DNA from: Calditrichia bacterium
GTDB lineage: Bacteria > Calditrichota > Calditrichia > RBG-13-44-9 > J075
Assembly: GCA_050633245.1 (NCBI GenBank)
Contig: JBOEGD010000022.1
Coordinates: 42,076-106,075 of the forward strand
Direction: 5' to 3'
Length of the DNA stretch: 64,000 bases
Both the position numbers and the translations under genes were made by a program. The notes beneath the pieces were generated by a model. It saw only the letters and a list, made by a program, of their open reading frames with translations, made no database searches and was not told the origin of the DNA. Below are positions 31,473 to 59,265 of this stretch, in pieces; position 1 is the stretch's first letter, and every line of letters starts with the position of its first letter.

Positions 31473-31575
31473 CTATAATACATATCTGAATTATGTTCCA
31501 TTTTTGCTCCGAGTCTGAGGAGGCTCTCACTGTAAGCTGTTAACCGTGTCTTTATTACCAATAGGATCCAACTTT

Positions 31576-33681: not shown

Positions 33682-33736
33682 AACTTTACATTGCCTTGCA
33701 CACTAAATACGAATACTTACTTTTTGCGGATAGAAC

Positions 33737-35023: not shown

Positions 35024-35033
35024 TTGGAGAAGA

Positions 35034-35059
35034 GTAACGTGGGTCAAGACCCACGTTAC
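35034..35059. terminator. Perfect hairpin between convergent genes (terminator or REP-like)
   Basis: GTAACGTGGGTC-aa-GACCCACGTTAC. Confidence 0.65.
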
Positions 35060-35086
35060 AACTTTGTGTTCTGAGGTCTGTAGTTT

Positions 35087-36931
35087 TTACTTCACCAGCA
35101 TCATCTTCTGCGTTTGCACATTGCCGTTCATGCTGAGCTGCGCATAATAAACGCCGCTTGTTGCAACGACACCGTTGGCGCCAGAACCATTCCACTCAAC
35201 TTTATAGCTTCCTGCTGCCAGGCGCTCATTCACCAGCGTGAGGACTTTCTGTCCCAAGCTGTTGAAAATAGTCAGTGTTACCGGACTATTCAGATTGTTA
35301 TCTGCCGGAACGTCGAAGCGTAGCGTCGTGCTTGGGTTAAACGGGTTCGGATAATTGCTGTGCAGTGCCAGCGTTTTGATAAGTCCGCCTTCAATCGGCT
35401 CAACACCGAGAACCACATCAACATCACCAAGATCACGCGGGAGAATCTGATAGCCTTCGGTGTAGGGAGGAGAATTGTCGAACTGTGTCAGGATTCCCTG
35501 TACATTCACCGGCCATGCTGGCTCGGCAGACCCGTCGATGTCTGTATCGCTGTCAACGCGCAAAGTATACACGTTCGTACCTCCATCGTCGGTAATCTCA
35601 ACATTTGCATTGTTATCTACTGCCGGCCACGGATCGGCAGCGCCGGTATTGGTTACACCTGCAATTGCAACCAGCTGACCCTCTAGGCCTTCGGAATTGC
35701 CGCCATTCAAATCAGCGAGAGTTGCTGTAACCGGCCCGGGCTCGGTTGCCGCACCATTGTCGATGATGTCTGCTGTTAGATCGTTCGGGATGATTTCGCC
35801 CTTGCCGTTAAACTGCGCAATAGTTCCAATAACGGTGTAGCTATTTCCACGCGTCATCGAAAAAGTAGAGTCCAGACCAAAAGCAAAAACATTTGTTCCG
35901 CCGGTTGCATCCTGCATGTATACATCAACATTGGTTGCCGAGAACACGCCGGTAGCAACAGTCAAAACACCCGTCAGACGGGCAGACAGACCAAGATATA
36001 TCAAGTTACCGTCGGAGTCATCATCCATTGCTGTTCCGATCGGTGTCGTTCCTGCCAGAAAACCAAAGCTAGGGCTTTCATTCGATTGCGGAGCATCATC
36101 TTCAGCATAAACCTTGTAGGATACCAAATCGCTGTCGGTATACTCGCTGGCAGCAATCTCCGCAGCGTAATTGTCTGTTGAAATCTCGGTCATCGCTACT
36201 TGTTGCTCGCTGCCGCTATTAATCGTGTATCGCAATTGAACGGCGGTAACATCACTGTCATCAGTAACGGTCGCGCTAACGGTTACATTCTCGCTTGCCA
36301 GTGGAACAAACGGCATGCGGGTAATACCAGAAATCAGTGGTGGCGGATCGCCGCCCAGAACCTGACCGTGTGCTGCATTGATCGCTCCGGGAGAGATAGC
36401 TGCAACGTCGACTGCAAAATATTGATCCTGATTGCCACTGTCGAAGCCATTGGCAACACGACCTACGCTGTTGTCGGAAAAGTCTTCGGCGGTAATGGCC
36501 ATTCCGGCAGTGAAATCCGGATTGTTGCCAAGAACACCTTCGTAGGAAATTCCGTCTACAACGGTACCATTAAGCTTCAGTAATATTCCGTCAGGCGAGC
36601 CATTTTGTACCGCATTGGCAATCCAGCCGGATGGCGTAAAGTCTACATTTGCAACATTCGTAGAACCAATTACCAGAAAACCGAAACCACTCTCGTTGTC
36701 ACTTGGAATAGTCTGACCGGCAAGGTCAACAGTATTGTAAATGCTACCATTGTTTCCATTAACCAATTCCAGTGTGTAACCGGAAAGATCCGTGCCGTCC
36801 GGGCCAACCAGCTCAACGAATTCTGCTTCGTCAGTTCCCGGCTGATCATAATCAACCTCATTAATGTACACCTGAGCTGAAAGGGCTGCACTTAACATCA
36901 GCACCATCAGGCTGGTAAAGATTGTTTTCAT
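35087..36931 (-). CDS. T9SS-secreted protein: lamin-tail domain, Ig-like domain, two OB folds, type A CTD
   Basis: YINEVDYDQPGTDEAEFVEL...DLSGY LTD; YMQDATGG...GTIAQFNG and LEGQLV...GILTQF...YQILPR OB pair; SNYPNPFNPST CTD. Confidence 0.85.
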   Translation of the reverse strand: MKTIFTSLMVLMLSAALSAQVYINEVDYDQPGTDEAEFVELVGPDGTDLSGYTLELVNGNNGSIYNTVDLAGQTIPSDNESGFGFLVIGSTNVANVDFTPSGWIANAVQNGSPDGILLKLNGTVVDGISYEGVLGNNPDFTAGMAITAEDFSDNSVGRVANGFDSGNQDQYFAVDVAAISPGAINAAHGQVLGGDPPPLISGITRMPFVPLASENVTVSATVTDDSDVTAVQLRYTINSGSEQQVAMTEISTDNYAAEIAASEYTDSDLVSYKVYAEDDAPQSNESPSFGFLAGTTPIGTAMDDDSDGNLIYLGLSARLTGVLTVATGVFSATNVDVYMQDATGGTNVFAFGLDSTFSMTRGNSYTVIGTIAQFNGKGEIIPNDLTADIIDNGAATEPGPVTATLADLNGGNSEGLEGQLVAIAGVTNTGAADPWPAVDNNANVEITDDGGTNVYTLRVDSDTDIDGSAEPAWPVNVQGILTQFDNSPPYTEGYQILPRDLGDVDVVLGVEPIEGGLIKTLALHSNYPNPFNPSTTLRFDVPADNNLNSPVTLTIFNSLGQKVLTLVNERLAAGSYKVEWNGSGANGVVATSGVYYAQLSMNGNVQTQKMMLVK

Positions 36932-37160
36932 TGTTTCCTCCTAATAAATAGACAGTAATAAAAGTGAATAGTTTCGATCATTCGATTATACATACCCCTT
37001 TAGGAAGCTTAAAGAATTCAATGTCCTTTCGCAATTTGAAAATGAAACAGATCGCAGGATTCGTTATCGCGGTCTCTTTAATAAATTTCGATTTACTTCT
37101 GGTTAAACAGTGACGAACTTGTACAGAGAGAACACATTCGCAACGGCTGAGAGTTCGCCT

Positions 37161-38579
37161 ATGTCACGTAAAACGCTTCACTTGTTCATATCATTCTCTA
37201 TTCCCCTGGCTGTACTTTTTATACCTGCCTCCATGATTCCGATTGAGGGTTTAACTCTTATTGAACAGCGGGTTATGGCTATCTTTGTAATGGCGACATT
37301 GCTGTGGATTTTGGAGCCGATTCCGATCTTTTCTACTTCAGTGCTTATTATTCTTTTGGAATTGGTCGTTTTGTCGAACAAGAGCTTTATTCTTTTTCAG
37401 AATACTTCAGCAGCAGCCGATTTCGGCAGGGTCATTCCCTATGAACAGATAATGGCTACATTTGCTTCGCCCATTATTCTGCTGTTTCTGGGTGGTTTTT
37501 TCCTGGCTATGGCAGCAACAAAATATCGTCTCGACGTAAACTTGGCGAGAGTTCTGCTGCGTCCATTCGGCGTGCGTCCCAAATGGGTGTTGCTTGGTTT
37601 GATGACCATTACCGCAGTGTTCTCAATGTTTATGAGTAACACTGCAACTACCGCTATGATGCTGGCGTTGCTAACTCCGATACTTGCTGCCTTTGATGCA
37701 AACGACGGCGGTAAAAATGCCTTTGTATTGGGTATTCCCTTTGCCGCGAATGTGGGTGGAATTGGAACACCTATTGGAACACCGCCAAACGCAGTTGCTC
37801 TGAAGTATTTGAGTGGTGAAAATGCTATCGGGTTCGGAAGCTGGATGACGTTTGCCGTGCCATTTGTAATCGTGTTACTGTTTTTTACCTGGTTCTTATT
37901 ATTGCACTTTTTTCCACCGTCAGCGCCTGAACTTAGAATGGAAATAAAAGGTTCATTCCTGAAAAACCGTAAAGCTTTGGTTGTCTACGGCACGTTTATT
38001 TTGACAATCCTGCTTTGGTTAACCGACGCCTTTCACGGAATGAATTCCTATATCGTCGCCTTAATCCCGGTTGCTGTTTTTACCACTACCGGGATTATTA
38101 CCACGGCAGATATGAAGCGAATCAGTTGGGATGTGCTGTGGCTTGTCTCCGGTGGTATCGCGCTGGGGATGGCTTTGGAGGAAAGTGGATTAGCTGCAAA
38201 CCTCATTCGGAGTATTCCTTTTGAGGCCTTTCCGGCATTATCTATAGTTTTTATTACTACTCTGATCGCAATTGTCATGGCTACATTTATGAGTAATACT
38301 GCTACGGCGAATTTATTGCTGCCCATCGTCGCCGCTTTGGGAGTAAGCCTGGGAGGGCTTGAGCCATTGGGAGGTAGTAAAATGATACTGCTCGGCGTTA
38401 CCTTCGCATGTTCACTGGCGATGTCTCTGGTCATAAGTACGCCACCTAATGCGATGGCACAAGCTACCGGCCTCATTGAAAGTCGTTCGATGATGAAAAG
38501 CGGCATAATTATAGGTGTCGTGGGGCTGTGTGAAGTATATGCAATGCTTTATATCTTAAAACAGGTTGGTTTCCTGTAA
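37161..38579 (+). CDS. SLC13/DASS family anion transporter
   Basis: MFMSNTAT twice, GGIGTPIGTPPN and STPPNA motifs; many TM segments. Confidence 0.93.
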   Translation: MSRKTLHLFISFSIPLAVLFIPASMIPIEGLTLIEQRVMAIFVMATLLWILEPIPIFSTSVLIILLELVVLSNKSFILFQNTSAAADFGRVIPYEQIMATFASPIILLFLGGFFLAMAATKYRLDVNLARVLLRPFGVRPKWVLLGLMTITAVFSMFMSNTATTAMMLALLTPILAAFDANDGGKNAFVLGIPFAANVGGIGTPIGTPPNAVALKYLSGENAIGFGSWMTFAVPFVIVLLFFTWFLLLHFFPPSAPELRMEIKGSFLKNRKALVVYGTFILTILLWLTDAFHGMNSYIVALIPVAVFTTTGIITTADMKRISWDVLWLVSGGIALGMALEESGLAANLIRSIPFEAFPALSIVFITTLIAIVMATFMSNTATANLLLPIVAALGVSLGGLEPLGGSKMILLGVTFACSLAMSLVISTPPNAMAQATGLIESRSMMKSGIIIGVVGLCEVYAMLYILKQVGFL

Positions 38580-39934
38580 TGAAAAACTTTTATCAAAATC
38601 TGAATATGAACGTGTTGATCAGCGTCTATTTTACGAATCCGGAAAAGAGGCTGACGTTGAAGAAAGGCGACTGCCTGATGCGCCAGGGAGGAAAGAATAA
38701 TCGACTCTATCTGGTTCTGGAGGGAGAATTATCCGGGCAGGTGAAGGGGCCTGAAGACAGCTCATTGGAATTGTTTCGCGTGGCGCCGGGTATGTTTGCC
38801 GGGGTTCACAGCTTTTTTTCACGATCCTATATAAGCAGCACCACTATTACAGCCTTGAAAAACAGTCTTGTTGCTTATATCGATCAACATCAACAAGCCT
38901 ACGAGAGTGAGCAGAGTGAAAGCCTTTTCGAGCAGTTCATGCCGGTAGTTGTAGGTGACCTTGCCTATCGGCAGCAGCTTGCGCACAAAATGTCTGTTGA
39001 AAAGCAGCAGGCGTTGAAACAGGTGATCGAGTCAGAAAAGTTAGCATCGCTTGGGCAAATGGCCGCTGGAATTGCCCATGAGTTGAATAATGCAGCTGCC
39101 GTTTTACAGCGAAATACCCACTGGTTGTCTGAACAGCTTGCGGGCATGTTTTCGCAGGATCACCCGCGGGTGTACCCGTTTTACGAGAGCGGCAGAAGCA
39201 AAGGTCGAAGTCTTTCGACACGAGAGATACGCCACCGCCGTAAGGAGCTGCAAAAACGCTATCGCCTCTCCGATGATGTCTACCGAATTGTATCGGAGAC
39301 TGAGGTCCCGGATAGTATGCTGCCGGAATCGGAGGCAGATCTGGCCGAAAATGCGGTTAATATGAACAGATTCTGGGAAATCGGCGCAACACTTCATGGG
39401 ATGCAGCTTGCTGCTGATCATGCTGCTCATGTTGCACGTTCGGTAAAAACGCTGGGTGCGCCCAGCTCGGCACGGCAACCCGATCAAGATGTCCCCGAAA
39501 CAATTCGACAGGCTCTTACATTATTGCATCACCCATTGCGGCAGGTCAGCGTTTCCACTCACCTTGCACCGGTCCCCGGCATTACGGCAAATAAGGGGGA
39601 GTTAGTGCAAATCTGGGTCAACTTAATCCGAAATGCCTGTGAAAGCTTGAAGCAGAGCCGTGCAGAAACCCGGCAAATCGATATTTTAGTTGAAGCGAGT
39701 CGAACGTTTTTGACAGTGAGAATTCAGGATAACGGTCCCGGTATAGCCCCCGAGCTATTGCCGACTATCTTTCAACCCAATGTAACGACCAAGGTCGATG
39801 GATTGTCCTTTGGTCTGGGTCTGGGTTTAAGTATTGTGCAGCGTCTGGTTGAGAGCTATGGTGGATCGATTACCGCGGAAAGTTCTAAAACACACACTGT
39901 ATTTCAAGTAAGGTTTCCTTTGAAGGTGATTTAA
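38579..39934 (+). CDS. Cytoplasmic histidine kinase with N-terminal cNMP-binding domain
   Basis: LMRQG..N.RLYLVLEG cNMP fold; EKLASLGQMAAGIAHELNN H-box; NLIRNA, DNGPGI, GLGLGLS; TAATG coupling to the transporter. Confidence 0.9.
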   Translation: MKNFYQNLNMNVLISVYFTNPEKRLTLKKGDCLMRQGGKNNRLYLVLEGELSGQVKGPEDSSLELFRVAPGMFAGVHSFFSRSYISSTTITALKNSLVAYIDQHQQAYESEQSESLFEQFMPVVVGDLAYRQQLAHKMSVEKQQALKQVIESEKLASLGQMAAGIAHELNNAAAVLQRNTHWLSEQLAGMFSQDHPRVYPFYESGRSKGRSLSTREIRHRRKELQKRYRLSDDVYRIVSETEVPDSMLPESEADLAENAVNMNRFWEIGATLHGMQLAADHAAHVARSVKTLGAPSSARQPDQDVPETIRQALTLLHHPLRQVSVSTHLAPVPGITANKGELVQIWVNLIRNACESLKQSRAETRQIDILVEASRTFLTVRIQDNGPGIAPELLPTIFQPNVTTKVDGLSFGLGLGLSIVQRLVESYGGSITAESSKTHTVFQVRFPLKVI

Positions 39935-39944
39935 AAAGCGAGGT

Positions 39945-40433
39945 ATGCAGATGGAAAAACCTGAAATTATTTGCATTGATGATCAGCGTGAGATTTTGGC
40001 GGCATTAGCAAAGGACCTCGAACCGCTGAGATCGCATTTTTCCCTCACATTCTGCGAGTCTGCGAATGAGGCAGAAGAGGTTATTGATGAGTTTGATGCT
40101 GAAGGAAAGCCCATTGCGCTAATCCTTTGTGATCATGTTATGCCCGGAAAGAACGGCGTGGATTTTATGATTGACTTAAATAAGCAAGCTCGATTTTCAA
40201 CGCTAAAAAAGATTCTTCTAACTGGTCAGGCGACACATCGTGACACGATAGTCGCAATAAACGAAGCGGCAATCGACCGCTATATTGAAAAGCCCTGGAA
40301 GCAAGATGATCTATTGAAAGCGATCCGTGTTCTGATAACGGAATTTCTATTCCATTCCGGGAATGTTTATCAGACTTACATTGAACAGCTCGATCAGCAG
40401 ACCCTTTATCGGTTGTTGCGCAAAAATTCCTGA
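39945..40433 (+). CDS. Single-domain response regulator
   Basis: ICIDD, CDHVMPG, LLTG and YIEKPW receiver motifs. Confidence 0.92.
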   Translation: MQMEKPEIICIDDQREILAALAKDLEPLRSHFSLTFCESANEAEEVIDEFDAEGKPIALILCDHVMPGKNGVDFMIDLNKQARFSTLKKILLTGQATHRDTIVAINEAAIDRYIEKPWKQDDLLKAIRVLITEFLFHSGNVYQTYIEQLDQQTLYRLLRKNS

Positions 40434-40553: not shown

Positions 40554-43500
40554 ATGGGACGTTTGTCCATCCTGCTTTTGCTATTGCCTTTTTGGGCCGT
40601 GGCTCAAGATCACCTGCTTATTTCTGAAGTTGTTGTCACACCGACTATCGGTGAATATGTCGAGATCCATAATCCGACTGCTTCCGCCATTGATTTGACG
40701 GATTATTATCTTACCGACGCAACGTTCGCAACCAACTCAGCTTATTACTACAACATTGTGACTGGTGCTGATGCCGGTGGTGGAACGTTTGGCGACTGGC
40801 TGGCTCGTTTTCCTGCCGGTGCATCCATACCCGCTGGTGCTTATCAGACGATTGCAATGAATGGGGCTGATTTTCAGACGGCCTATGGACAATCTCCTAC
40901 CTACGAATTGTTTGATGTCTCTTCAGCAGCTGATATGCTTGAAGGTTTACCGGGTTCGGTAAATAGTCAGGGTGGGTTGACCAATAGCGGTGAAGTCGCG
41001 ATACTTTTTCAGTGGGATGGCGTTAGTGATCTGGTTGCTGATGTCGACTATGTCGTTTGGGGAGATAAAGTTGAGGGTGTCGACAAAACGGGTGTTTCTA
41101 TTGACGGCCCGGATGCCGATTCCGATGTTTCAACGTATCTAGATGATGTTTCCATTGCCAATCAAATTGCAACCTCTGGTGGTCAGCCGCATAACGATGG
41201 TGAGTCTATTCAGCGTTTTGCAGCGACAGAAACTGACGAAATTACATCCGGTGGAAACGGAATTACCGGTAACAATGAGATGAGCGAGAATCTTGGTTCC
41301 TCCTTTATAACCGCGGTAGTAACACCTAATGCCGGGCCGCCTGCTTCAGATGCTCCGCAGATTAACAATGTGATGCGCAGTCCGGCTAATCCCAGCACCG
41401 AAGATGTCGTCACAATTACTGCTACGGTTACCGATGATGTGAGTCTTGTCAGCACCCGACTATTTACTTCTATTGCCGGTGCGGCTTTTGACAGCACCGA
41501 TATGGCGAACACCAGTGGCGATGAATTCAGCGCAATGATTCCGATTCAAGCCGAAGGCGTAGAAGTTCAGTATTTTATAAAAGCACGAGATGGTGATAAT
41601 CTTACTTCTTTGTCTGCAACAACCGCCTATACCGTTATCGCACCACTACAGGTGGTGCCGATTGCCGACATTCAGGCCAACCCTGGCAATTTTACCACTG
41701 TTCTTGTTGAAGCTATTGTTACTGTTGGTGCCGGGCGATTGATAACAACTCGAACGGATACCTATGTTCAGGATGCCTCCGGCCGTGGTATTAACGTATT
41801 CAGTTTTGATGAGCCAACCGTTCCACCGAATGATTTGCTGGTGCGTGGGAATGCGGTACGCGTTACCGGAACGGTGGAAGAGTTCAACGGTATTACCGAG
41901 ATTACCAACTATACGATTGAAGTAACCTCTACCGGGAATGCAGTTCCGGACGCGCTGGTGCTTACTACTCAGGCAGCAGGGAACACCGCTCTTGAAGGAA
42001 CACTGATTGAAACATCCGGATCAATAACCGATATTTCTGCGTTTGCCGATGCTGCAAACATTACTATCGATGATGGCAGCGGCAGTGTAACGGTACGCGT
42101 TTGGGCAACAACCGGCATTGATGTAACAGGCTTGGCTGTGAATGATGAAATTACCGTTCGCGCAGTCATGGATTTATTTAACGATACGGCGCAGTTGGTG
42201 CCCGCATATAATGATGACCTGCAGGTTGCCGGACAGAATCCCGGCGATGGCAGCGGTAGCGCTTCTATAACACCGGATAGTGTTGCTACGTCAGAAGCGA
42301 CCTCAGCAATGGTTAGCATTAATGGTGAAGGAATGTTTTCGTTGGAAAGCGTTTCCGTACGCGTTCCGCAGAGTTGGAGCTGGACCAATAGCGTCGGAGA
42401 TGTCCAGCTTGCTGGCAGTGGGTTTTCCGGTGCAACAGTTGACGTGCTTGGCAGTGTGATTAGCATTAGCGGAGCATCGGTGACAGATCTTTCTGCCGGG
42501 ACGATTACGATTAATAGTTTAACTGCACCTGCAACAGACGAGACGTCTGAATTTCAGGTTCGCACCGCGACTGCAGGGGGTACGCTAATTTCAATATCAG
42601 CTTCTCCCAAAATAATCGTTGGTGCCGGTGGCTTACCGTCTACGCCAATTGCCGATATTCAGGCAAACCCGAGTGGTTTTTCAACAGTGACAATTCAGGG
42701 TGTGGTTACTCAGGGCGCCGGTGTAACGATCGGAACACGAACCGATGCTTATGTTCAGGACGCCTCAGGACGTGGTATTAACGTGTTTAGCTTTGATGAG
42801 CCGACAATTCCGCCAAATGACTTGTTGGTACGAGGAAATGTCCTTCGACTTACCGGAACGATCGAAGAATTTAATGGCGTTACTGAGTTGACAAATTATT
42901 CTGCCGAATTAGTTTCCACCGGTAATCCAATTGTAGATCCTCTGGTGATTTCGACGCAAATTGCCGGTGATGTTACACTGGAAGGAACCTACGTTCAGGT
43001 CACCGGAATTGTGAACGATATTGTCCCTGGTTTGGGTGGCGGAACCAATATTGACCTGAATGACGGCAGCGGAGAAGTAACCATCCGCGTTTGGGATGCG
43101 ACCAATATTAATCTGGCATTTATCTCACAAGATGATACTATCACCGTCCGCGGTGTGATCGACATCTTCGATAACGATACGCAGGTATCGCCTGGCTATC
43201 AGGATGAAATTACAATTTTTGGAAGTGGCTCTGCGGGTGACGGTAGCGGTTTCGCATCGATCTCTCCAGACACAGCAAGTATTGATGCTGCTCTTGATGT
43301 TACCCTGAAGATTTGGGGCAATTTGTCCGATACGCTTGAAACGGCGAAGATCACTGTGCCGTACAATTGGGCATGGAGTGGGCAGGAAAGTGCGGTAACG
43401 GTTACTGGTAGTGGTGCTGCCGGTGCTTCTGTTCAAATTCTTCGCGAATTCGATGAGCTGTTTGTTGAAATCTCCGGAGCAGCTATTACCGGACAAGATA

Positions 43501-44573
43501 CAGCTTATGTCGCGATCTCCGGGCTTACCGCCCCAGATCTATCTGTTTACTCGTATTTTTGGATTCGTACTGCGTCAGCCGGTGGAACCCCTTTCTTTAT
43601 TGCAGAAAGTCCTCGCATTCAAGTTGGCAATGAACCGATTCATCAAATGCGCGATATTCAAACCTACTCCGCTCAGTTTACGGGGGACGTTACCTTGCGT
43701 GGTGTTGTCACTATTGCCGATAACGTCATCCGAACAGATCGCACTTCAGCATATTTTCAAGACTTTTCCGGCTTTGGAATTAATATTAACGATGGTCAGG
43801 CACCGGGTGGACGTTTTCCGCGTGGTGCTGGAATTGAGATAACGGGTGGTATTTCTGTCTTTGGAGAAACGACACAGATTGCACCGAGCACGGTTACGAG
43901 TATTACCGGACTTCCTGATATTACACCTATTTCGCTTTCATCTGGCGATGCTGCAAGTCCACGTTATGATGGAACGCTTATTGAAGTCTCCGGTGTGGTA
44001 GTTGATAAGTTTACGACCTCGAGTATTCCGCCACTGGATTTTAACGTTGTGTTGAATGATGGAACCGGTGAGTTGACGGCACGAATTTGGTCTACTACCG
44101 GAATTAATCTGGATTCAATAAACGTCAATGATGCAGCAATTATCAGCGGTATTGGCGATGTGTTTGTCAATAATAGCGGCGTGCGTAGCTATCAGGTGGT
44201 GCCGGGATATCAGGATCAACTGGCACTCGATCCGAACTTTCAGCCGACATTGGCTGGAGTTAGCCTTAGCACGCCACCAAATCCATTTGTACCGACCCTT
44301 GGTGAAACGATCGACATTTCCTATAATGCCGGATCTGTTGCAAACCGAACTGTGGTGCGAATTTTTGACCTGGGTGGACGATTAGTAACAACGCTTCTCG
44401 ACGAAGAGGCCTCTCTGATTCAGAATGTTTTGGAATGGGATGGTCGGGATCGCTTTTTTAATCGCGTGCCGCTTGGTGCCTACATTTGTCATCTGGAAGT
44501 CGTTGAGCCGGTAACCGGTAAAAAAGAGCAGCGTACTGCCCCGATTGTTGTTGGTACAGTGCTGAGTCGTTAG
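40554..44573 (+). CDS. Large surface protein: lamin-tail domain, Ig-like domains, three tandem OB-fold pairs, FlgD-Ig/T9SS-type CTD
   Basis: HLLISEV...EYVEIHNPT..IDLTDYYL LTD; three repeats of IADIQ...YVQD.SG.GIN...G..E.NG.TE / EGT...DGSG...RVW; C-terminal PNPFVP...RIFDLGGRLV..L...WDGRD. Confidence 0.85.
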   Translation: MGRLSILLLLLPFWAVAQDHLLISEVVVTPTIGEYVEIHNPTASAIDLTDYYLTDATFATNSAYYYNIVTGADAGGGTFGDWLARFPAGASIPAGAYQTIAMNGADFQTAYGQSPTYELFDVSSAADMLEGLPGSVNSQGGLTNSGEVAILFQWDGVSDLVADVDYVVWGDKVEGVDKTGVSIDGPDADSDVSTYLDDVSIANQIATSGGQPHNDGESIQRFAATETDEITSGGNGITGNNEMSENLGSSFITAVVTPNAGPPASDAPQINNVMRSPANPSTEDVVTITATVTDDVSLVSTRLFTSIAGAAFDSTDMANTSGDEFSAMIPIQAEGVEVQYFIKARDGDNLTSLSATTAYTVIAPLQVVPIADIQANPGNFTTVLVEAIVTVGAGRLITTRTDTYVQDASGRGINVFSFDEPTVPPNDLLVRGNAVRVTGTVEEFNGITEITNYTIEVTSTGNAVPDALVLTTQAAGNTALEGTLIETSGSITDISAFADAANITIDDGSGSVTVRVWATTGIDVTGLAVNDEITVRAVMDLFNDTAQLVPAYNDDLQVAGQNPGDGSGSASITPDSVATSEATSAMVSINGEGMFSLESVSVRVPQSWSWTNSVGDVQLAGSGFSGATVDVLGSVISISGASVTDLSAGTITINSLTAPATDETSEFQVRTATAGGTLISISASPKIIVGAGGLPSTPIADIQANPSGFSTVTIQGVVTQGAGVTIGTRTDAYVQDASGRGINVFSFDEPTIPPNDLLVRGNVLRLTGTIEEFNGVTELTNYSAELVSTGNPIVDPLVISTQIAGDVTLEGTYVQVTGIVNDIVPGLGGGTNIDLNDGSGEVTIRVWDATNINLAFISQDDTITVRGVIDIFDNDTQVSPGYQDEITIFGSGSAGDGSGFASISPDTASIDAALDVTLKIWGNLSDTLETAKITVPYNWAWSGQESAVTVTGSGAAGASVQILREFDELFVEISGAAITGQDTAYVAISGLTAPDLSVYSYFWIRTASAGGTPFFIAESPRIQVGNEPIHQMRDIQTYSAQFTGDVTLRGVVTIADNVIRTDRTSAYFQDFSGFGININDGQAPGGRFPRGAGIEITGGISVFGETTQIAPSTVTSITGLPDITPISLSSGDAASPRYDGTLIEVSGVVVDKFTTSSIPPLDFNVVLNDGTGELTARIWSTTGINLDSINVNDAAIISGIGDVFVNNSGVRSYQVVPGYQDQLALDPNFQPTLAGVSLSTPPNPFVPTLGETIDISYNAGSVANRTVVRIFDLGGRLVTTLLDEEASLIQNVLEWDGRDRFFNRVPLGAYICHLEVVEPVTGKKEQRTAPIVVGTVLSR

Positions 44574-44606
44574 AAGCTAGAGGTAAGAGGCAAGACGTGA
44601 CCCCGC

Positions 44607-44630
44607 GTCAGGCTGAGCGAAGGCGAAGCC
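44607..44630 (+). repeat. Short REP-like element
   Basis: GTCAGGCTGAGCGAAGGCGAAGCC resembles the widespread GTCAxCCTGAGCGxAGTCGAAG intergenic repeat; preceded by degenerate heptamers. Confidence 0.45.
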
Positions 44631-44684
44631 AGAGCGACGAAAAAAGAAAATATCTGTTAACGATCTATAAAAGGACGAAAGTCG

Positions 44685-45581
44685 ATGAAAAAAGCCGAAA
44701 CCACTTATTTGCGGAGAATCCTATTAAGCTGCAGCATTTTGCTGATGCTTTCTCTGCAGATCCAGGCTGGACTATTTGATGACCGCTACCCAAGCGCCCG
44801 CGCGATGGGAATGGGCGGATCGGGTGTTGCAGATGCTCATGGTGTCTGGTCTGCCTACTACAACCCTGCCAGTCTTAGTCGTCAGGATAACCTTCAGCTT
44901 GGTAGCGCCTATACGCGTCCATTCAATCAGAAGTTCTTTCGCAACTTCTTTGGTGGTGGTGCAGCTGCAATCAACCCTCGATTTGGTGGCGTTGCCGTAG
45001 CTTTCGAATACTTCGGTGTTGATAATCAGAGTCAAAACCTGTCCGGCGAATATACTTTGGCGCTGTCCCACGGCTTTCATCTCTTAAAGGATGTGCACAG
45101 CTCTCTATCGTTTGGCTATTCGTTGAAAGGTTACCATTACTCCCTGGGAACGTCGGTTGATGGCCTTGAGTTGGGAAGCACGACAACGTTGGGTGTCGAT
45201 ATGGGATTCCAGGCTTCGATCTTTGGGCGCACGCATATTGGTGTTTATTTGCTGAACATGAACTCACCACAAATCGGTGAAGGCAGCAAAGAAGAATTAC
45301 CGCAGCGCTTGATGGCAGGCATTTCCTACAAGCCGTATGATGGTGTTACAACCAGCCTGGATTTTAATCGACAGCTACAGTCTAACGACACGGAAGTTTG
45401 GGCAGGAGCAGAATTTCGCGTTTTCGACTATGTGTTGCTTCGCTTTGGCGGCACAAGTAACCCGAACCGCTTCTCAGCAGGAGTTGGACTCGATCTCCAG
45501 CAAATTTCAATTGATTACGGTATGCGAACGCATAGTGATCTTGGTGAAACGCATCTTATCGGATTAAGCTACGATTTCTAA
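44685..45581 (+). CDS. PorV/PorQ/PorP-like T9SS outer-membrane beta-barrel
   Basis: Signal peptide, SARAMGMGG...YYNPASL hatch motif, about 300 aa of amphipathic strands, C-terminal LSYDF. Confidence 0.8.
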   Translation: MKKAETTYLRRILLSCSILLMLSLQIQAGLFDDRYPSARAMGMGGSGVADAHGVWSAYYNPASLSRQDNLQLGSAYTRPFNQKFFRNFFGGGAAAINPRFGGVAVAFEYFGVDNQSQNLSGEYTLALSHGFHLLKDVHSSLSFGYSLKGYHYSLGTSVDGLELGSTTTLGVDMGFQASIFGRTHIGVYLLNMNSPQIGEGSKEELPQRLMAGISYKPYDGVTTSLDFNRQLQSNDTEVWAGAEFRVFDYVLLRFGGTSNPNRFSAGVGLDLQQISIDYGMRTHSDLGETHLIGLSYDF

Positions 45582-45596
45582 AAAACCAATCGGACA

Positions 45597-48242
45597 ATGA
45601 CCGAAATGAGTAAATTGAGACAAAAAAATATGAGTATCGCCCGGCAAAACGATCGCTTTGGTTTTATGCGTTCTCTGATTTGTGTGCTGCTGTGTGCCTT
45701 TTGCATAACCTCGCTTTATGCGCAGTCGGATTCTTATTCATCCGAAAATCAGCTCGACATCAACAATGCGACCTACGAGGAGATTGTAAAGCTGCCCGTG
45801 TCTCTGGCTATTGCCGAACGACTATATGAACGCATTCAGCGTAGCGGGCCGTTTACAAGTATCTTTGAGCTGCGTGAAATAGAAGGTATTAGTCAACGCG
45901 TTCTTTTGCGATTGAAACCGCTTGTTCGCATTGAGCCTTATGTCGCGCAAACCGAGCGAGAAAGTCGTATCGAAAACCTTTATGTAAAGCTGGATCGTTG
46001 GAGTGGCCGTGAAGGCACCAATCAGGCACTGGTAGACTCCTGGATTGAACAGGCACTTGAACCGGTAGATGTAAATACGATTAGCTTTGGTGAGCTACTG
46101 AATCTGCAGGGAGTTTCACCCGTAGATGCCGCTGCAATTATCAATTATCGCAATGAAGTGGGTAAAATATCCAGTGCTCGCGATATGCGTAGTATTCCAT
46201 ACCTATCCTACTTTGGCTATCGCAATGCCCGCGACTTCCTAAGCTTTAGCGAAAATCAGAAGAAGCGTGAGTTTCACGGTTCAATTCGCTTCCGGTCTAC
46301 AAATACACCGTTCTTTAGCGAAGAAGCCGAAGCCGGTGAAGATCTGGATTTACCTGCCGGTCAGGCAAACGATTATCCCGATTATTACACTCGCTTTGTT
46401 GGTAATATTGGCTCTGATATCAAAATTGGCTATTCATTCTGGCATGCGTTGGAAGAACCGGTTCTTAGCTACGACATCGCTGGTCTGGAAATTCCGCGTG
46501 CCAAATGGTATGTAGGTCTAGAAGACAAGAGCTGGGGTGCACTAAAGCTCAAGAAATTTTATGTTGGAAACTACTCGCTGGCATTTGGCGAAGGAATCGT
46601 TATGGAAAACACCGATTTCTTTACACCGCGTAAGACCGGCTTTGGCTTTCGTAAGCGTTTTATCGGCTTGTCTGGCGATAATTCCCGTACGCGTCAGTAT
46701 AAACTGACCGGCGCAGCAGCACAGTTTGGAATCGGCAAAGCTCACTTGTATCTCTTTGGCTCCTTCGATCAACGCGATGCCATTCTTGGCCGCGAGCCGA
46801 TTCTTGTCGGTGCTGAGGGCGAAGAAGAACTAATCAATCCGGTGAGCCATTTAATTGTGCTCGATCAGCGTTTCGAATATGCCCCTGATGACTCTGCCCG
46901 CATCCGCGCCGAGCTGCCGTGGCGAGATTCCGTGAAGGAATTGACCTATGGTTTTCACACTGCTTATGACATTCTGCCAACGACGCAGCTTGGCTTTACC
47001 TACTATGAGAGCGCTTACGACCGTCCGTTAAGACCGCCAACCACCGCCGAAGAAAGTGCCGACATTGTACTGCCTGCTGAAACACGCCAGATTGATTTCC
47101 CCGATAATGAAATCTTTAACTCTTACGGCGGCCGCGTCTCTGATGGAGAGAATCCGTTCTGGAGTGAAGCAAAAGCTTTCCGTCGCGTCTATGGACTTGA
47201 TTTCCGCTCGGTTTATGAGAATGTCTCTTTTCAAGCCGAATATGGAGAGCTTGATACCGGTGAAGGGCTTTCTCTTTTTGGAGCCAGTGGAGACAATCCC
47301 TGGGCCTTTACCGCCAGTGCCTATGTGCAGTACAATAATTTTAACTTCATGGGGCTGTATCGCAATTATCAGATAGGCTTCGACAATCCCTATCAGCGAT
47401 CGTTCTCCAACTATCGCCGCTTTAAACGCGGGGTATATGAAGACTATTTCTACCTGCAGTCCGGCCTGTATGGCCAGTTGTATTCAAACAATCCGCAGCC
47501 ACAGGCCGAAGAAGGATTCTATTTTCTCACTCGCTATCAGGTGAACCGCAAAACCACACTGACTGTTGAATACGATAACTGGTTGCGCAATGCCGATGAT
47601 GTGCCACAGTATCGCCTTCGTGGCACTCTGCAATTCCGACCGATTTTCCCGATAGATATTTCGTTACGTCAGAAGTATCAGGGACGCGAAGTACAGAACA
47701 ATCAAAGCATTGAATATTTTGAAAATCTGGAGTTTCGCGGCCGGGTGCGCTTTCGCCTGTCCCGCTTTAATAGTCTGAGCATTGACTATGGAAGTAATGC
47801 TGTAAAATTCCGCCCACGTCCGCGCCTGTTTTTTGGTACGGAGCCGGGATCAGAAACCGGACAGGATAACCTGGCTGGAAATGCCGCTATTGACGGTGAA
47901 TTTCTCGGTGGAAACTATACACACAATTTTAATGAATGGCTGAAAGTTAGTGGTGGACTCGTCTACTATCGCGGCTTTTACTGGACCTTTGAAGATACCC
48001 AATTCCTGGTGCTCGACAGCGATCGCGGTGCCATGCGATATTGGACCTCCTTCTATTCGCGTATCAGTAACCAGCTAAGCATGCGTTTAAAGTATTCACG
48101 TGATCGTCAGGCCGTTGGAACGTTTGCACAAACACGCGAGACGAATAATGATCCGGTTATTGAACCCGGCGTTGCCACAGAAGCCGACTACATTCAGGGT
48201 AAACAAGATGTCTTTTATCTCGAGCTTAATTACAATTTCTAA
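45597..48242 (+). CDS. Helix-hairpin-helix (ComEA-like, two copies) outer-membrane beta-barrel protein
   Basis: LDINNATYEEI...GPFTSIFELREIEGI and VDVNT....L..L.GV....A.AII.YR...G HhH_3-like domains; GNYSLAFGEGI; C-terminal YLELNYNF; start may be 45630 or 45666. Confidence 0.82.
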   Translation: MTEMSKLRQKNMSIARQNDRFGFMRSLICVLLCAFCITSLYAQSDSYSSENQLDINNATYEEIVKLPVSLAIAERLYERIQRSGPFTSIFELREIEGISQRVLLRLKPLVRIEPYVAQTERESRIENLYVKLDRWSGREGTNQALVDSWIEQALEPVDVNTISFGELLNLQGVSPVDAAAIINYRNEVGKISSARDMRSIPYLSYFGYRNARDFLSFSENQKKREFHGSIRFRSTNTPFFSEEAEAGEDLDLPAGQANDYPDYYTRFVGNIGSDIKIGYSFWHALEEPVLSYDIAGLEIPRAKWYVGLEDKSWGALKLKKFYVGNYSLAFGEGIVMENTDFFTPRKTGFGFRKRFIGLSGDNSRTRQYKLTGAAAQFGIGKAHLYLFGSFDQRDAILGREPILVGAEGEEELINPVSHLIVLDQRFEYAPDDSARIRAELPWRDSVKELTYGFHTAYDILPTTQLGFTYYESAYDRPLRPPTTAEESADIVLPAETRQIDFPDNEIFNSYGGRVSDGENPFWSEAKAFRRVYGLDFRSVYENVSFQAEYGELDTGEGLSLFGASGDNPWAFTASAYVQYNNFNFMGLYRNYQIGFDNPYQRSFSNYRRFKRGVYEDYFYLQSGLYGQLYSNNPQPQAEEGFYFLTRYQVNRKTTLTVEYDNWLRNADDVPQYRLRGTLQFRPIFPIDISLRQKYQGREVQNNQSIEYFENLEFRGRVRFRLSRFNSLSIDYGSNAVKFRPRPRLFFGTEPGSETGQDNLAGNAAIDGEFLGGNYTHNFNEWLKVSGGLVYYRGFYWTFEDTQFLVLDSDRGAMRYWTSFYSRISNQLSMRLKYSRDRQAVGTFAQTRETNNDPVIEPGVATEADYIQGKQDVFYLELNYNF

Positions 48243-48258
48243 TCAGGAGACGGCTACT

Positions 48259-49533
48259 ATGCGTCATATCCTTTGCGCCTTTATTTGTTTAACTGTGCTG
48301 TCGCTAAGCAGCATTGCGCAAAACCTCACTGCTTTTCCGGTGGGAGAAAACTGGCAGTTTACCGATGCGCGTACGCTCGGTATGGCTGGAAGCGGCTCCG
48401 TCTCCAACAGTGGTGCCGGTGCGTTGCTTATGAACCCTGCAGCTTTGGGGCGTGGAAGCGGCAGAATGGAACTGTCTGTTTCAACGACTTTACGCAATAT
48501 GGAAGAGCGGCGCTCATTCCCGGTGTTTAACCGCATTGATGATGTTACGACTAAAGGAATCTATGCGATAAACGATAACTGGTATGTACAGCCTCAGGGT
48601 GGTGCGCGTTATAATTTGAATCTTTCTGCGGTGCCGTTCCTGAAAGCCTTTGCGTTCGGAACCTATAATGAAGTAGATCAGGATTACAAATATCTGGAAG
48701 AAGTTCGCAGCCGGGATTTTAACGGAGAACGCTCTCCGTTGGCTTACAATCAGATTCAGTTTGAAGGCGATCTGACACGCTATAGTTTTGGAACAGCGCT
48801 TGGGCTTGGCAGCAAGCTCGATTTTGGCTTTCAATTAGGTTTCTTGAATGGCGATCTGGAGTCCAGCTCATCCGTTGACTTTCAGGCGGAAGAAAATCAG
48901 GCGAACAGCTTTCGCATACAGAACTTTCGTTCGTTAGACAATACGCCGTTGGTTGTCTCTGCTGGTGCAATTGTAGACGTTTCTCCGCAGCTGACGCTTG
49001 GTAGTCACGTTCGGCTTCCCTACAAGGTTGAATATGCCGTTTCTGTAGAAGGAACGGATGGCAGCACACCTGAGAGCTACGAATACCCGATGGCAATAAA
49101 TGTCGGCATGGAATACCGCGGTCGTCAAGAGCTTCAATCCAGCCTGAATGTAGATTTCAGCTATGAGCTGTGGAGTGAAACAGAATCAACTAAAGATGGC
49201 GTTGTTTTACCTAATTTGCTGGATGATGTCGTTACACTAAAAGGTGGAATTGAGCATATCTTCTACAATCAAATTCCACTACAGTTTGGATTACAATACC
49301 GCACCGCTTTGCAGGATCGACGTAGTAGTCGCACGCTGTTTTCTATAGGAAGTGGCTATGTAACCAAGCAGTGGCAAGTGGATGGCGCACTTGGCTTTAG
49401 CAAGCTCAGTTATACCGCTGAGGATTTATTCGATGATGCGCTGTTTGGCGGGGATCGATCTGGTAGCCCAATCGATGATGTTGAAGAACGTTATGTCTAC
49501 GGCATTATTACGCTGAAGATAAACTTCGAATAA
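48259..49533 (+). CDS. FadL-like outer-membrane beta-barrel protein
   Basis: AGGAG RBS, signal peptide, DARTLGMAG...NPAALG hatch motif, YP...G.EY, GGIE. Confidence 0.75.
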   Translation: MRHILCAFICLTVLSLSSIAQNLTAFPVGENWQFTDARTLGMAGSGSVSNSGAGALLMNPAALGRGSGRMELSVSTTLRNMEERRSFPVFNRIDDVTTKGIYAINDNWYVQPQGGARYNLNLSAVPFLKAFAFGTYNEVDQDYKYLEEVRSRDFNGERSPLAYNQIQFEGDLTRYSFGTALGLGSKLDFGFQLGFLNGDLESSSSVDFQAEENQANSFRIQNFRSLDNTPLVVSAGAIVDVSPQLTLGSHVRLPYKVEYAVSVEGTDGSTPESYEYPMAINVGMEYRGRQELQSSLNVDFSYELWSETESTKDGVVLPNLLDDVVTLKGGIEHIFYNQIPLQFGLQYRTALQDRRSSRTLFSIGSGYVTKQWQVDGALGFSKLSYTAEDLFDDALFGGDRSGSPIDDVEERYVYGIITLKINFE

Positions 49534-52452: not shown

Positions 52453-54324
52453 ATGGTTCTTCTCCGTGTTATCGCAATACTCTTGCTGTCGGGTTTGCTG
52501 TATGGACAAACGTCCCTGCCGGAGGATGAGGTGATCGCTGTGCAGGCGGGTGATTATTTTAGCCGACTTCAGGAGCTAAGCGAAAACCCCCTTGATATGA
52601 ATAAGGCCTCGGCAAGACAGCTTCGGGACATTCCCTTTTTGAATCGAAAACTTATTTCAGCTATACTGAATTATCGCCGTAAAACAGGGGAATTTCAAAC
52701 CGTTGATGAGCTGCTTCGTATTAATGGAGTCTCCGGTGAGCTATTGGAAGCGATGCGTGCCTACCTGCAAGTTGAAGCTAAACCGAGAGCGCTAAGGCTG
52801 GTTTATGACCAGCGCCTAGCCGCTACGGCACATAAAACGCGTGCGTATGTAAGAGATCTATATGGCAGTCGCCTTGCAATAAGACAACGCTTTTTGCTGC
52901 AAATGGAGGATCGATTTAAGTTCATTCTCCAAACGGAAAAAGACGCTGGCGAACCAAACTGGCGAGATCACGTTTCCGGCTCGGCAGCTATTGAGTTAAG
53001 ACGGTTGCACAGCCATGTTGTTTTGGGTGATTATTATGCCTGGTTTGCACAAGGCTTGATCTCAGGTGGTGCTTATGGTAAACGCCTGACTGCAGGAAGT
53101 GGGCACTCTGCTTTGATTCCGGGCATGCTTCGAGTGCGTCAAAAAACCGGAGCGGATGAGTTCGCTTTTTTACGCGGCATTAGTTGGCAAGTTCAACCAA
53201 TCGAGCCGTTGCAGCTAACCACACTGGTTTCTGTTCGCAAGCTGGATGCTGTTTTGTCAGAAGACTCTCTTACTGTTTTGCGCTTGGTGAATACGGGATT
53301 TCATCGCAGTGAGAGTGAACTGGCGCGACGTAACAGTCAAAGGGAAAAACGTCTTGCATTAGCGGCCACGCTCAATTTAAAAGCCTTCTCTATTGGCGCG
53401 CTCTATCAAATAAATCAATATTTCAAAAAGCAACAGTTTACAGGCTTAACATCTGAAGGCGGATGGAGCGGTAGCATCGCATTTTCCTATCGAACTGAAA
53501 GTTGGAAGCAGTCGGTGGAACTTGCTCGGGGAATCCGAGGCAGAGCACTAATGGCAAGTGTTGTAACACAATCTATGGGAATGCGCTTTGGTGCCGGTGT
53601 TTTTTATTATTCTCCTCTTTTTATCTCTCCCCATGGTCGGCGTTTTGGTGCATTTGGACAATCACCTGCAAATCGCTTTGGTGTTCAGCTGTTACAAAAT
53701 CTTATCCTGCCGGCAGCGCTTCGCGTTAGTATTCACCTCGAGGCCGGCAGGCCGGTACAGCCCGAAGTGGCATTTCCGATTACGTCCTGGGCAGCGAGTG
53801 CGTATGCAGAGCAACGCTTTAAGCGGATCGTCTGGAAATTGCGATATAGTCAGCGCTCTTCTGGAAATGAGGAGCTTCAGCGAGACAGGCTACCGGTTCG
53901 GCGTCGATTGCGTCTGGATTTGGAATATCAACCAAACAAGCGTTTGCGGCTTAGTCAGCGAATTGATTTTAGCCGTGCATTGGGCAAAAGCTATGGTATT
54001 GCCTTGCAGAACGACCTTCGCTATCGCGTTACTTCTTTCGGGAATATACAATTCCGTTATACGCATTTTGACGTACCGGATTTCGATTTGCGGCTATATG
54101 AGCTTGAAACGGGCTTGCCCGGAGAATTGGAGACGCGGTTGTTAAATGGGTTTGGCTATAAGTGGTTTGCACTTGCGACAGTATCCCCTGTCGATTATTT
54201 GCAAGTTGGGCTAAAGTATCGGGTTGAATACTATCCGGATGAGCAGACATTGGGAAGCGGAAATGATTTAATCGATGGAAATGCACGACGATTTTTGCGC
54301 GGCTACCTGCGATTGAAGTGGTAG
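52453..54324 (+). CDS. Helix-hairpin-helix (ComEA-like) outer-membrane beta-barrel protein
   Basis: PLDMNKAS...L..IP.L....AILNYR...GEF..V.EL..I.GV HhH; EKDAGE and GDY...FAQGL motifs; C-terminal YLRLKW; GGAGG RBS. Confidence 0.85.
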   Translation: MVLLRVIAILLLSGLLYGQTSLPEDEVIAVQAGDYFSRLQELSENPLDMNKASARQLRDIPFLNRKLISAILNYRRKTGEFQTVDELLRINGVSGELLEAMRAYLQVEAKPRALRLVYDQRLAATAHKTRAYVRDLYGSRLAIRQRFLLQMEDRFKFILQTEKDAGEPNWRDHVSGSAAIELRRLHSHVVLGDYYAWFAQGLISGGAYGKRLTAGSGHSALIPGMLRVRQKTGADEFAFLRGISWQVQPIEPLQLTTLVSVRKLDAVLSEDSLTVLRLVNTGFHRSESELARRNSQREKRLALAATLNLKAFSIGALYQINQYFKKQQFTGLTSEGGWSGSIAFSYRTESWKQSVELARGIRGRALMASVVTQSMGMRFGAGVFYYSPLFISPHGRRFGAFGQSPANRFGVQLLQNLILPAALRVSIHLEAGRPVQPEVAFPITSWAASAYAEQRFKRIVWKLRYSQRSSGNEELQRDRLPVRRRLRLDLEYQPNKRLRLSQRIDFSRALGKSYGIALQNDLRYRVTSFGNIQFRYTHFDVPDFDLRLYELETGLPGELETRLLNGFGYKWFALATVSPVDYLQVGLKYRVEYYPDEQTLGSGNDLIDGNARRFLRGYLRLKW

Positions 54325-59096: not shown

Positions 59097-59117
59097 TTGA
59101 TACATAACGTACTGATT

Positions 59118-59156
59118 GCATTCCCTGAAGATCTTTGTCATTCGGGGAACGCTTTT
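59118..59156 (+). terminator. Probable rho-independent terminator
   Basis: GCaTTCCCTGAA...TTCGGGGAAcGC followed by TTTT. Confidence 0.55.
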
Positions 59157-59265
59157 GTCTTTGATGATAAATGACTTTGGATGTTAGCCAGTATACAGAA
59201 TCCGCAATCGTTCATCTCTATTTTATCCTTTTGTATTATTCCGTTCACAATTACAGGAGCTATAC

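Follow-up and report, generated by a model that had tools for sequence, protein, structure and literature searches.

A conserved outer-membrane gene cluster of Calditrichota as a candidate module for the capture and import of extracellular nucleic acid

Our analysis of a 64-kb window (the whole stretch of 64,000 nucleotides analysed, from contig JBOEGD010000022.1 of a Calditrichia bacterium) leads us to propose, with moderate confidence, that four co-directional genes on its plus strand, called A, B, C and D here, specify a system at the outer membrane for catching nucleic acid outside the cell and drawing it into the periplasm, where it would chiefly be degraded and salvaged ('DNA feeding'). 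The genes are separated by intergenic gaps of 111, 15 and 16 bp, and all four lie where an earlier note on this DNA had placed them (Table 1). The core idea of that note was that a non-catalytic binder on the cell surface works with an outer-membrane barrel carrying ComEA-like helix-hairpin-helix (HhH) domains, and it is strengthened by synteny, co-loss, linked nucleases, a model of the OB folds and a co-fold; the pilus-independence that it ascribes to the route does not necessarily apply to this genome, where one ComEC and four secretins are present. Independent lines of evidence support the link of the cluster to nucleic acid well, and a model supports the holding of A by B; that DNA passes through C, with the HhH domains acting as a ratchet, is what we infer.

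The first of these lines is the company that the genes keep. Among 20 loci from 20 Calditrichota genomes, C and D are adjacent in every one and the order A-B-C-D is found in 18, counts that exclude a chance co-location of A-D. Both exceptions belong to a single genus (g8, two genomes) in which the cluster is split: at its loci (L013, L014, L033, L034, L118) C and D stand together behind a sigma-factor-like gene, and the B orthologue (57% identity) is solitary elsewhere, with no A-like gene within 9 kb. The genes are also lost together. In a sample of 86 Calditrichota genomes, with presence of C defined as a match at E≤1e-30, C is present in 66 and absent from 20, 12 of which are at least 90% complete; the genomes without C occur in six of eight families, and four of those six also have C-bearing genomes. 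The B orthologue is missing from all 20 C-less genomes and D from 19 of them. The distribution of a 5'-nucleotidase orthologue follows that of C closely (both genes in 62 genomes, C only in 4, nucleotidase only in 0, neither in 20), these counts being made among related, non-independent genomes. A nucleotidase of about 530 aa directly follows D in 10 of 18 Calditrichota loci.

The cluster also recurs well beyond the phylum, so that conservation of the gene neighbourhood, which the earlier note proposed to test, is seen both within Calditrichota and across phyla. A profile search of 1.84 billion representatives returned 136 clusters at E≤1e-30, with sources that include WOR-3, Fermentibacteraceae and Elusimicrobiota. 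A locus scan queried with a 7-sequence alignment, and limited to one genome per species, gave 80 loci from WOR-3, TA06, Fermentibacteria/Sabulitectum, Edwardsbacteria, Stahlbacteria, Latescibacterota and unnamed bins; their genes were called with hidden Markov models (HMMs) built from the Calditrichota orthologues, and C was recognised in 77. Of the 66 loci with a gene upstream of C, 62 have B in the immediately preceding position; an A-like OB protein is encoded at most four genes upstream in 48 of 61, and D lies immediately downstream in 48 of 73. In length the A-like proteins span about 335 to about 1250 aa, the smallest being, as judged by the HMMs, little more than one OB pair.

What follows D in these other phyla bears directly on function. 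The next gene encodes a phospholipase D-family (PLD) or 5'-nucleotidase-like protein in 41 of 46 loci, PLD accounting for 21. According to Pfam and NCBIfam, the PLD proteins carry PLDc_2 and have NucT as their nearest named nuclease (1.7e-14), and the nucleotidase-like proteins combine Metallophos with 5_nucleotid_C and are UshA-like. A single copy of the HxKxxxxD motif is kept in all 35 PLD proteins. A hydrophobic, signal-peptide-like N-terminus is present in most of the PLD and nucleotidase proteins, and their ends, as read, leave no room for a C-terminal sorting domain in any of them; on these features a periplasmic location is the best reading. Soluble periplasmic nucleases need polymer or oligomer in the periplasm, and this is the strongest argument for import of nucleic acid by the cluster, beyond mere binding.

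The wider surroundings of the cluster vary. At locus L051, Pfam identifies, directly upstream of the cluster, genes for a lipid A acyltransferase, OstA/LptA-like proteins, an ABC ATPase and rpoN, and, downstream, genes for two PLD proteins, a short metallophosphatase, an aldehyde dehydrogenase, NrdR and SAICAR synthetase. Judged from the sizes of the open reading frames (ORFs), a run like that of L051 is present at L046, L047, L050-L053, L056, L068, L072, L083 and L092; L083 carries a Bacteroidales label, yet has the L051-type ORF layout. At three further loci (L082, L084, L115) the nucleotidase is followed by a RecJ-like protein of about 535-570 aa, with DHH/DHHA1 in L082; none of the three has a signal-peptide-like start, and the protein may be the housekeeping RecJ or a cytoplasmic step handling imported DNA.

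The second line of evidence comes from A itself. The earlier note described a lamin-tail domain (LTD) followed by three tandem OB pairs, and both are recovered by Pfam and self-BLAST: the LTD matches PF00932 at 6.3e-10 (39.8 bits, cut-off 34.3), the OB fold matches PF01336 at 3.3e-15 (56.2 bits, cut-off 27), a unit of two OB folds and an Ig-like module at aa 370-700 recurs at aa 700-1030 (69% identity in its first OB), and aa 1032-1225 hold a third OB pair of greater divergence. Ig-like modules separate the three pairs. The duplication that the note had seen in the DNA is likewise real, with 70% identity over 300 nt (41657-41956 versus 42644-42943). The OB unit (aa 366-700) is modelled with a predicted local distance difference test (pLDDT) score of 95.3, and its top Foldseek matches are Teb1 AB, HIN-200 proteins (p202/p204/AIM2/IFI16, including 4jbm) and RPA70, the HIN-200 matches, including 4jbm_A, having template-modelling (TM) scores by target of 0.40-0.46. 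The repeats are thus predicted by the model to fold as OB domains, as had been supposed, with tandem-OB DNA binders as neighbours, and this confident model points to a resemblance of the OB pairs to the DNA-binding modules of HIN and RPA proteins. Of 29 aligned OB units, 26 match the nucleic-acid OB family PF01336. A-like proteins from other phyla match DUF5689 at up to 4.7e-11. The window itself holds a paralogue of A, a 614-aa protein encoded at 35090-36931, which aligns to A's OB pairs at 9e-16, matches DUF5689 at 4.5e-7 and is the genome's sole DUF5689 match above cut-off. On these alignments, the sequence link to DUF5689 appears weak for A, and clear for its relatives and for the paralogue in the window.

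A is predicted to bind and not to cut. No nuclease family matches it in Pfam at E≤0.1; the ExeM/NucH model (NF033681) scores 39.1 bits against a cut-off of 300 and covers positions 30-113 of 546 only; and the EEP, SNase and Endonuclease_NS families are listed for none of 95 relatives of A. A nuclease role is therefore ruled out, as the catalytic domain is found in neither A nor these relatives, and the earlier note was right to see none in A. No ExeM/NucH protein above cut-off was found in this genome.

How A would be held at the surface is suggested by its C-terminal domain (CTD) and by the product of the next gene. The earlier note likened these to a type B CTD of the type IX secretion system (T9SS) and a cognate PorP/SprF-like barrel. 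The FlgD-Ig/T9SS-like character of the CTD stands, as that of what looks like a diverged type A domain; its assignment to type B does not. The matches to FlgD_ig (E 0.096) and to the CTD region of PorU (E 4.2e-4, 18 bits) are both weak, and the type A sorting domain (TIGR04183 / PF18962) has no match at E≤0.1. In an alignment of 18 sequences, with a mean column identity of 64%, the CTD carries the motifs PNPF..., RIFDLGGRLV and GxYxxxL, which we take to resemble those of type A CTDs. It is 57% identical to its orthologues, compared with 31-45% in the remaining segments of A. For B, a PorV-like identity holds and a PorP/SprF-like one does not: the protein aligns end to end to the PorV/PorQ family model NF033709 (profile positions 11-326 of 326; E 2.5e-18, 66.7 bits against a cut-off of 90) and ranks 13th in a genome search for this family, after 12 paralogues above cut-off. 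When B (aa 28-298) and A's CTD were folded together, the interface score ipSAE, taken as the median of three runs, was 0.89 versus 0.00 for the best control, a mark reached by 116 of 157 solved complexes and by 2 of 215 mismatched pairs; the partner pLDDT was at least 85 and contact agreement among runs was 100%. The modelling of the CTD with the small barrel that the note had called for thus places A's CTD on B, and by analogy with PorU-PorV and PorZ-PorQ it seems probable that A retains its CTD, held on B. A CTD held by a PorV/PorQ-type barrel is accordingly the nearer analogy, in place of the type B CTD/PorP pairing.

The T9SS of this genome is a full set, with one SprA, two PorU and 12 PorV/PorQ-family barrels above cut-off; 47 further genome matches are limited to the PorU CTD region, at 39-49 bits versus 18 for A's CTD. 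This unusually large number of shuttle-type barrels suggests many dedicated cargo-barrel pairs. Several additional PorV/PorQ-family genes score below cut-off, there are two to three PorU-like genes genome-wide, and on contig C46 a PorU-like gene is followed by a PorV-like gene. Two T9SS cargo genes lie in the window on the plus strand at 57075-62170, encoding proteins of 673 aa (SpoIID and Por_Secre_tail) and 787 aa (Por_Secre_tail/FlgD_ig).

C would be the conduit. As the earlier note had it, C is a barrel with two ComEA-like HhH domains, and both Pfam and an AlphaFold2 model agree. HHH_3 (PF12836) matches at 5.9e-18 in two stretches (65.2 bits, cut-off 27), and the ComEA model (TIGR01259) scores 47.8 bits against a cut-off of 152. 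In VIA-align, HhH domain 1 superimposes on Geobacillus ComEA (8dss) with a Z score of 11.6 and a root-mean-square deviation of 1.4 A over 64 residues (33% identity), and the best alignment of the tandem is to the HhH pair of human EEPD1 (9yi2). The model, built from a 38-sequence alignment (pLDDT 73.8, predicted TM score 0.71), shows a pair of helical HhH domains and then, at aa 226-881, a barrel for which we count about 24-26 strands from its DSSP listing. Its best matches in Foldseek and VIA-align are the 24-strand ushers FimD (Z 13.7) and PapC (Z 13.4), with 370 and 368 residues aligned. Since porins (13.2), VDAC and TonB-dependent receptors come within one Z unit of the ushers in the whole-C structure search, we conclude only that C has a large outer-membrane barrel; by sequence, the Usher family has no match in Pfam at E≤0.1. 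Two other identities were considered and rejected. C is not a TonB-dependent transporter, as judged by the lack of a Plug or TonB_dep_Rec match at E≤0.1, nor is it LptD, as it has no LptD_N/LptD match and is missing from 20 of 86 genomes of the phylum; a separate 877-aa ORF with LptD_N lies on contig C32 of this genome. A search with PF04453 gave no match and carries no weight here, having matched in just 2 of 14 control genomes and missed Bacteroides. Calab_1208 of Caldithrix abyssi DSM 13497 belongs to the family. As to the extent of the gene, the alignment to orthologues begins near aa 23 of C, and a Met at 45666 precedes the signal peptide; this alignment suggests that 45666 may be a likelier start than 45597.

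A second HhH-barrel is encoded on the plus strand of the window at 52453-54321. Its 623 aa comprise a signal peptide, a single HHH_3 (1.3e-11) and a remainder that looks like a barrel and ends ...LRLKW, and it aligns to C in the HhH part only (hhalign probability 91.5%). Its length is near that of Atlas clusters of about 530-620 aa (Cloacimonadota, Bacteroidota) that resemble C's barrel (TM 0.71-0.79), and it shows no synteny to A-D in the 20 Calditrichota loci.

D was described in the earlier note as a FadL-like, hatch-type barrel. Its likeness to the barrel superfamily is retained, and the more specific label amounts to a weak sequence likeness: the BamG model (NF053685) matches at 3e-8 with 33.2 bits versus a cut-off of 250, and PorV_fam at 1.7e-7, also far below cut-off. 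The longest ORF opens at 48100 and overlaps C by 143 nt; a Met at 48259 precedes a signal peptide, and 48259, rather than 48100, is likely the start.

Taken together, domains, models and linkage would fit the following sequence of events. A would be exported and displayed at the surface, its CTD staying bound to its dedicated PorV/PorQ-like barrel B, as the domains, the model and the co-fold suggest, and its three HIN/RPA-like OB pairs would bind DNA or RNA without cutting it. The captured polymer would then enter through C, a putatively plug-less barrel of about 24-26 strands, whose two ComEA-type HhH domains may hold the strand and bias its movement inwards; we place these domains on the periplasmic side because the N-terminal domains of outer-membrane barrels normally lie there. 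The FadL/PorV-like barrel D would act as an accessory partner. Finally, periplasmic PLD nucleases of the Nuc/NucT type and the UshA-like 5'-nucleotidase, whose linkage is observed in relatives, would yield nucleosides and phosphate.

Several observations weigh against this proposal and temper our confidence in it. In C, the first hairpin of HhH domain 1 reads LP-VS instead of LPGIG, so that the G-I-G is lost; the hairpin glycines are partly conserved among 88 long-form C proteins (that of the window and 87 from the loci), and just one Gly-bearing hairpin is kept across phyla. Because the hairpins are partly degenerate, DNA binding by the HhH domains is plausible, not assured, on their sequence. 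The barrel of C finds generic barrel matches only, on a plateau of Z 12-13.7 that includes porins and VDAC. For A, DUF5689 (PF18942, cut-off 28.6 bits) has no match in the whole protein at E≤0.1, and of the 29 aligned OB units 4 match it, weakly, at E≤0.01 (best 4.2e-4). Solved structures exist for complexes of PorV with cargo CTDs, and the pass of the A-CTD/B co-fold may partly reflect likeness to these. D is missing from a WOR-3/Stahlbacteria subgroup. In this genome the nucleotidase (556 aa, with a signal peptide) is unlinked, on contig C31:54179-55849; the gene adjoins D in other Calditrichota families, and is unlinked in the window's own. A tblastn search with WOR-3 PLD queries found no linked periplasmic nuclease in this genome, whose only small PLDc_2 ORF (contig C2) has no signal peptide. 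Finally, given ComEC and the four secretins, the genome may have another route for DNA.

The genome's ComEC also raises the possibility that the same machine is the outer-membrane stage of natural transformation, in which DNA held by C would be passed to ComEC and one strand would enter the cytoplasm for recombination. The linked PLD proteins have as their nearest named relative NucT, a Helicobacter nuclease tied to transformation, which would also fit. Further encouragement comes from Riemerella, where transformation depends on each of three proteins: a DUF5689 protein, the barrel next to it and an HhH protein (PMC8459023). We nevertheless consider this role unlikely as the principal one. The genes associated with the cluster are degradative (the 5'-nucleotidase and one or two nucleases), none of comEC, comF and dprA lies beside it in five Pfam-scanned loci, and ComEC is near-universal, so that its presence says little. 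Moreover, the Discussion of PMC12478041 describes Bacteroidales Ddb loci as serving catabolism without detectable competence. Feeding would thus suit the linked genes better than competence, on their annotation, and the two roles are not exclusive.

Should C not import anything, A could be an adhesin or matrix anchor that binds extracellular DNA and sits on B, with C and D as structural or export partners (an usher-like exporter or a T9SS accessory) and the HhH domains binding something other than DNA. The usher matches of the C barrel, its degenerate hairpins, the completeness of the T9SS, in which at least 12 PorV-family barrels score above cut-off, and a B-C adjacency steadier than A-B, as expected if B serves C, would all be in keeping with such an arrangement. 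It leaves unexplained the nucleases and 5'-nucleotidases with signal peptides found just after D in 41 of 46 loci of other phyla, the loss of the nucleotidase together with C, and the retention across phyla of the ComEA-type domains of C, HHH_3-type domains being kept in all five relatives scanned with Pfam; the usher likeness itself lies on a plateau of unrelated barrels and has no counterpart in an Usher family match by sequence. We therefore judge it quite improbable. More improbable still is a polysaccharide-utilisation-like locus for another polyanion or glycan: OB folds, which can bind oligosaccharides, and LTDs occur also in carbohydrate-active proteins, one of 29 OB units matches CBM_56 (2e-4) and PF22184 is listed for some long relatives of A, all of which is outweighed by the 26 of 29 units matching PF01336, by the DNA-binding tandem OB domains that are the structural neighbours of the OB pair, and by linked enzymes that are nucleases and nucleotidases, with no glycoside hydrolase near the cluster in the five scanned loci.

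Table 1. Features of the A-D cluster and of the smaller set upstream of it, in positions of the window.
Feature	Position	Strand	Remarks
Gene A	40554..44573	+	1339 aa; predicted secreted; signal peptide, LTD, Ig-like domain, 3 OB pairs, CTD
Lamin-tail domain of A, aa 17-129	40602..40940	+	Pfam PF00932
OB pair 1 of A, aa 366-590	41649..42323	+	self-BLAST and structure model
Internal DNA duplication in A	copy 1 41657..41956; copy 2 42644-42943	+	987 nt apart
OB pair 2 of A, aa 695-920	42636..43313	+	self-BLAST; best PF01336 match (aa 814-878) inside
OB pair 3 of A, aa 1028-1232	43635..44249	+	more diverged; 32-39% identity to pairs 1 and 2
CTD of A, aa 1240-1339	44271..44570	+	T9SS type-A/FlgD-Ig-like; most conserved part of A
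Gene B	44685..45581	+	298 aa; PorV/PorQ-like outer-membrane barrel, predicted holder of A's CTD
Gene C	45597..48242	+	881-aa HhH-barrel protein
HhH_3 domain 1 of C, aa 50-113	45744..45935	+	VIA-align versus ComEA 8dss; phmmer alignment
HhH_3 domain 2 of C, aa 150-215	46044..46241	+	Pfam best stretch 155-215; ComEA 8dfk alignment
Beta-barrel of C, aa 226-881	46272..48239	+	about 24-26 strands; C-terminal end ...NYNF
Gene D	48259..49533	+	424 aa; FadL/PorV-superfamily barrel
Acidic lipoprotein, 711 aa	31546-33678	+	upstream set
PorV/DUF5723-like barrel, 428 aa	33737-35020	+	upstream set
LTD, Ig, one DUF5689 OB pair and standard type A CTD, 614 aa	35090-36931	-	paralogue of A; upstream set

The smaller set upstream of A-D, at 31546-36931, is differently arranged and contains the paralogue of A discussed above. 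Between it and the cluster lie genes for an SLC13 transporter, a histidine kinase and a response regulator (37110-40433), which we rejected as parts of the system, since two weak kinase matches were all that tblastn returned in the 20 loci.

The capture of nucleic acid by such a module would matter ecologically, as sediments contain a major pool of phosphorus, nitrogen and carbon in the form of extracellular DNA (PMC8289736). Passage of DNA across the outer membrane without a pilus has been known for Bacteroidota only, and only since 2021-2025, and the cluster extends the logic of an OB catcher, a barrel, an HhH element and a periplasmic enzyme to Calditrichota, WOR-3, TA06, Fermentibacteria and other, mostly uncultured, phyla. 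If the HhH-barrel does pass nucleic acid, it would provide a compact pore that needs no energy coupling and a genomic marker of DNA-foraging capacity in metagenomes, and it would imply that pairs of a T9SS-type CTD and a PorV can be used as fixed surface receptors. A bolder suggestion, which we make tentatively and regard as somewhat doubtful, is that C represents an unrecognised class of TonB-independent outer-membrane nucleic-acid translocases with a built-in ratchet of the ComEA type, fed by a T9SS-displayed OB array on a PorV-like barrel. In that event, C and its shorter relatives (the 623-aa HhH-barrel at 52453-54321 and the clusters of about 530-620 aa in Cloacimonadota and Bacteroidota) would be widespread in the FCB superphylum, and C would be a further route for DNA through the outer membrane, beside the secretin/pilus, Helicobacter ComB and the TonB-dependent DdbCD.

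Parts of the proposed module have counterparts in known systems. In the T9SS of Porphyromonas gingivalis, PorU-PorV and PorZ-PorQ are attachment pairs in which, as predicted for A on B, a surface protein keeps its CTD and is held by a barrel of the PorV/PorQ family; A differs from these in being a predicted nucleic-acid binder and no sortase, and its CTD is an outlier among the CTDs of the genome. Where DNA uptake depends on a type IV pilus, ComEA works together with the secretin PilQ (summarised in PMC8459023), and C shares with this system the ComEA-type HHH_3 and, as proposed here, the retention of DNA in the periplasm. The HhH domains of C are in contrast in tandem, as in human EEPD1 (9yi2), and fused to a barrel, and the cluster has no pilus or secretin gene. 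With the nucleases ExeM/NucH and YhcR, A shares the LTD and OB accessory domains, and unlike them it has no catalytic domain; the terms lamin tail domain, extracellular DNA and nuclease occur in PMC6085458 and PMC8289736.

A literature search, whose coverage excluded subscription journals, found no paper on the present cluster. The general concept of pilus-free capture followed by uptake through a barrel is nevertheless already published for Bacteroidota (PMC8459023, PMC12478041), and the cluster is therefore less novel than the earlier note assumed. Its novelty lies in a different conduit and a different anchoring scheme. In Riemerella anatipestifer, transposon mutants identified three genes as essential for natural transformation: RA0C_RS04920 (a DUF5689 protein), its neighbour RA0C_RS04915 (an outer-membrane barrel) and, as a protein of its own, RA0C_RS02645 (HhH). 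It was proposed that DNA is captured and passed through the barrel, its entry into the periplasm being aided by the HhH protein (Huang et al., 2021; PMC8459023). The likeness to our cluster extends to the DUF5689/OB surface protein, the outer-membrane barrel, the ComEA-like HhH element and the want of a pilus. The systems differ in that the Riemerella HhH protein is separate and predicted to be periplasmic, whereas HhH domains are here fused to a different barrel, and in that the Riemerella barrel carries a CarboxypepD_reg domain where C carries HhH domains; the role in Riemerella is transformation, by genetics, whereas the genes linked to the present cluster point to catabolism (PMC8459023).

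A close functional parallel is the ddbABCDEF locus of Bacteroides thetaiotaomicron, which is needed to deplete exogenous DNA and encodes a TonB-dependent barrel (DdbC), a DUF5689 protein modelled as p202-like (DdbD) and three nucleases; its authors call it PUL-like, after polysaccharide utilisation loci, and related to the Riemerella system (Sharan et al., 2025; PMC12478041). In both cases a non-catalytic, surface tandem-OB protein resembling the HIN domain of p202 (4JBM) is encoded beside an outer-membrane barrel, together with a co-located nuclease bearing a signal peptidase I (SPI) signal, a PUL-like logic applied to DNA (PMC12478041). The conduits differ, DdbC being TonB-dependent and C having two HhH_3 domains and no Plug or TonB_dep_Rec match at E≤0.1. 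So does the anchoring: DdbA, DdbE and DdbF have signal peptidase II (SPII) signals, indicating a lipid anchor, and DdbD is the extracellular partner of DdbC, whereas A would be held by a T9SS-like CTD on a PorV-like barrel of its own (PMC12478041). A has three OB pairs and an LTD, and its cluster has no surface nuclease and an extra barrel, D. Lastly, the Ddb loci described there are those of Bacteroidales, whereas the present cluster occurs in Calditrichota, WOR-3, TA06, Fermentibacteria and others.

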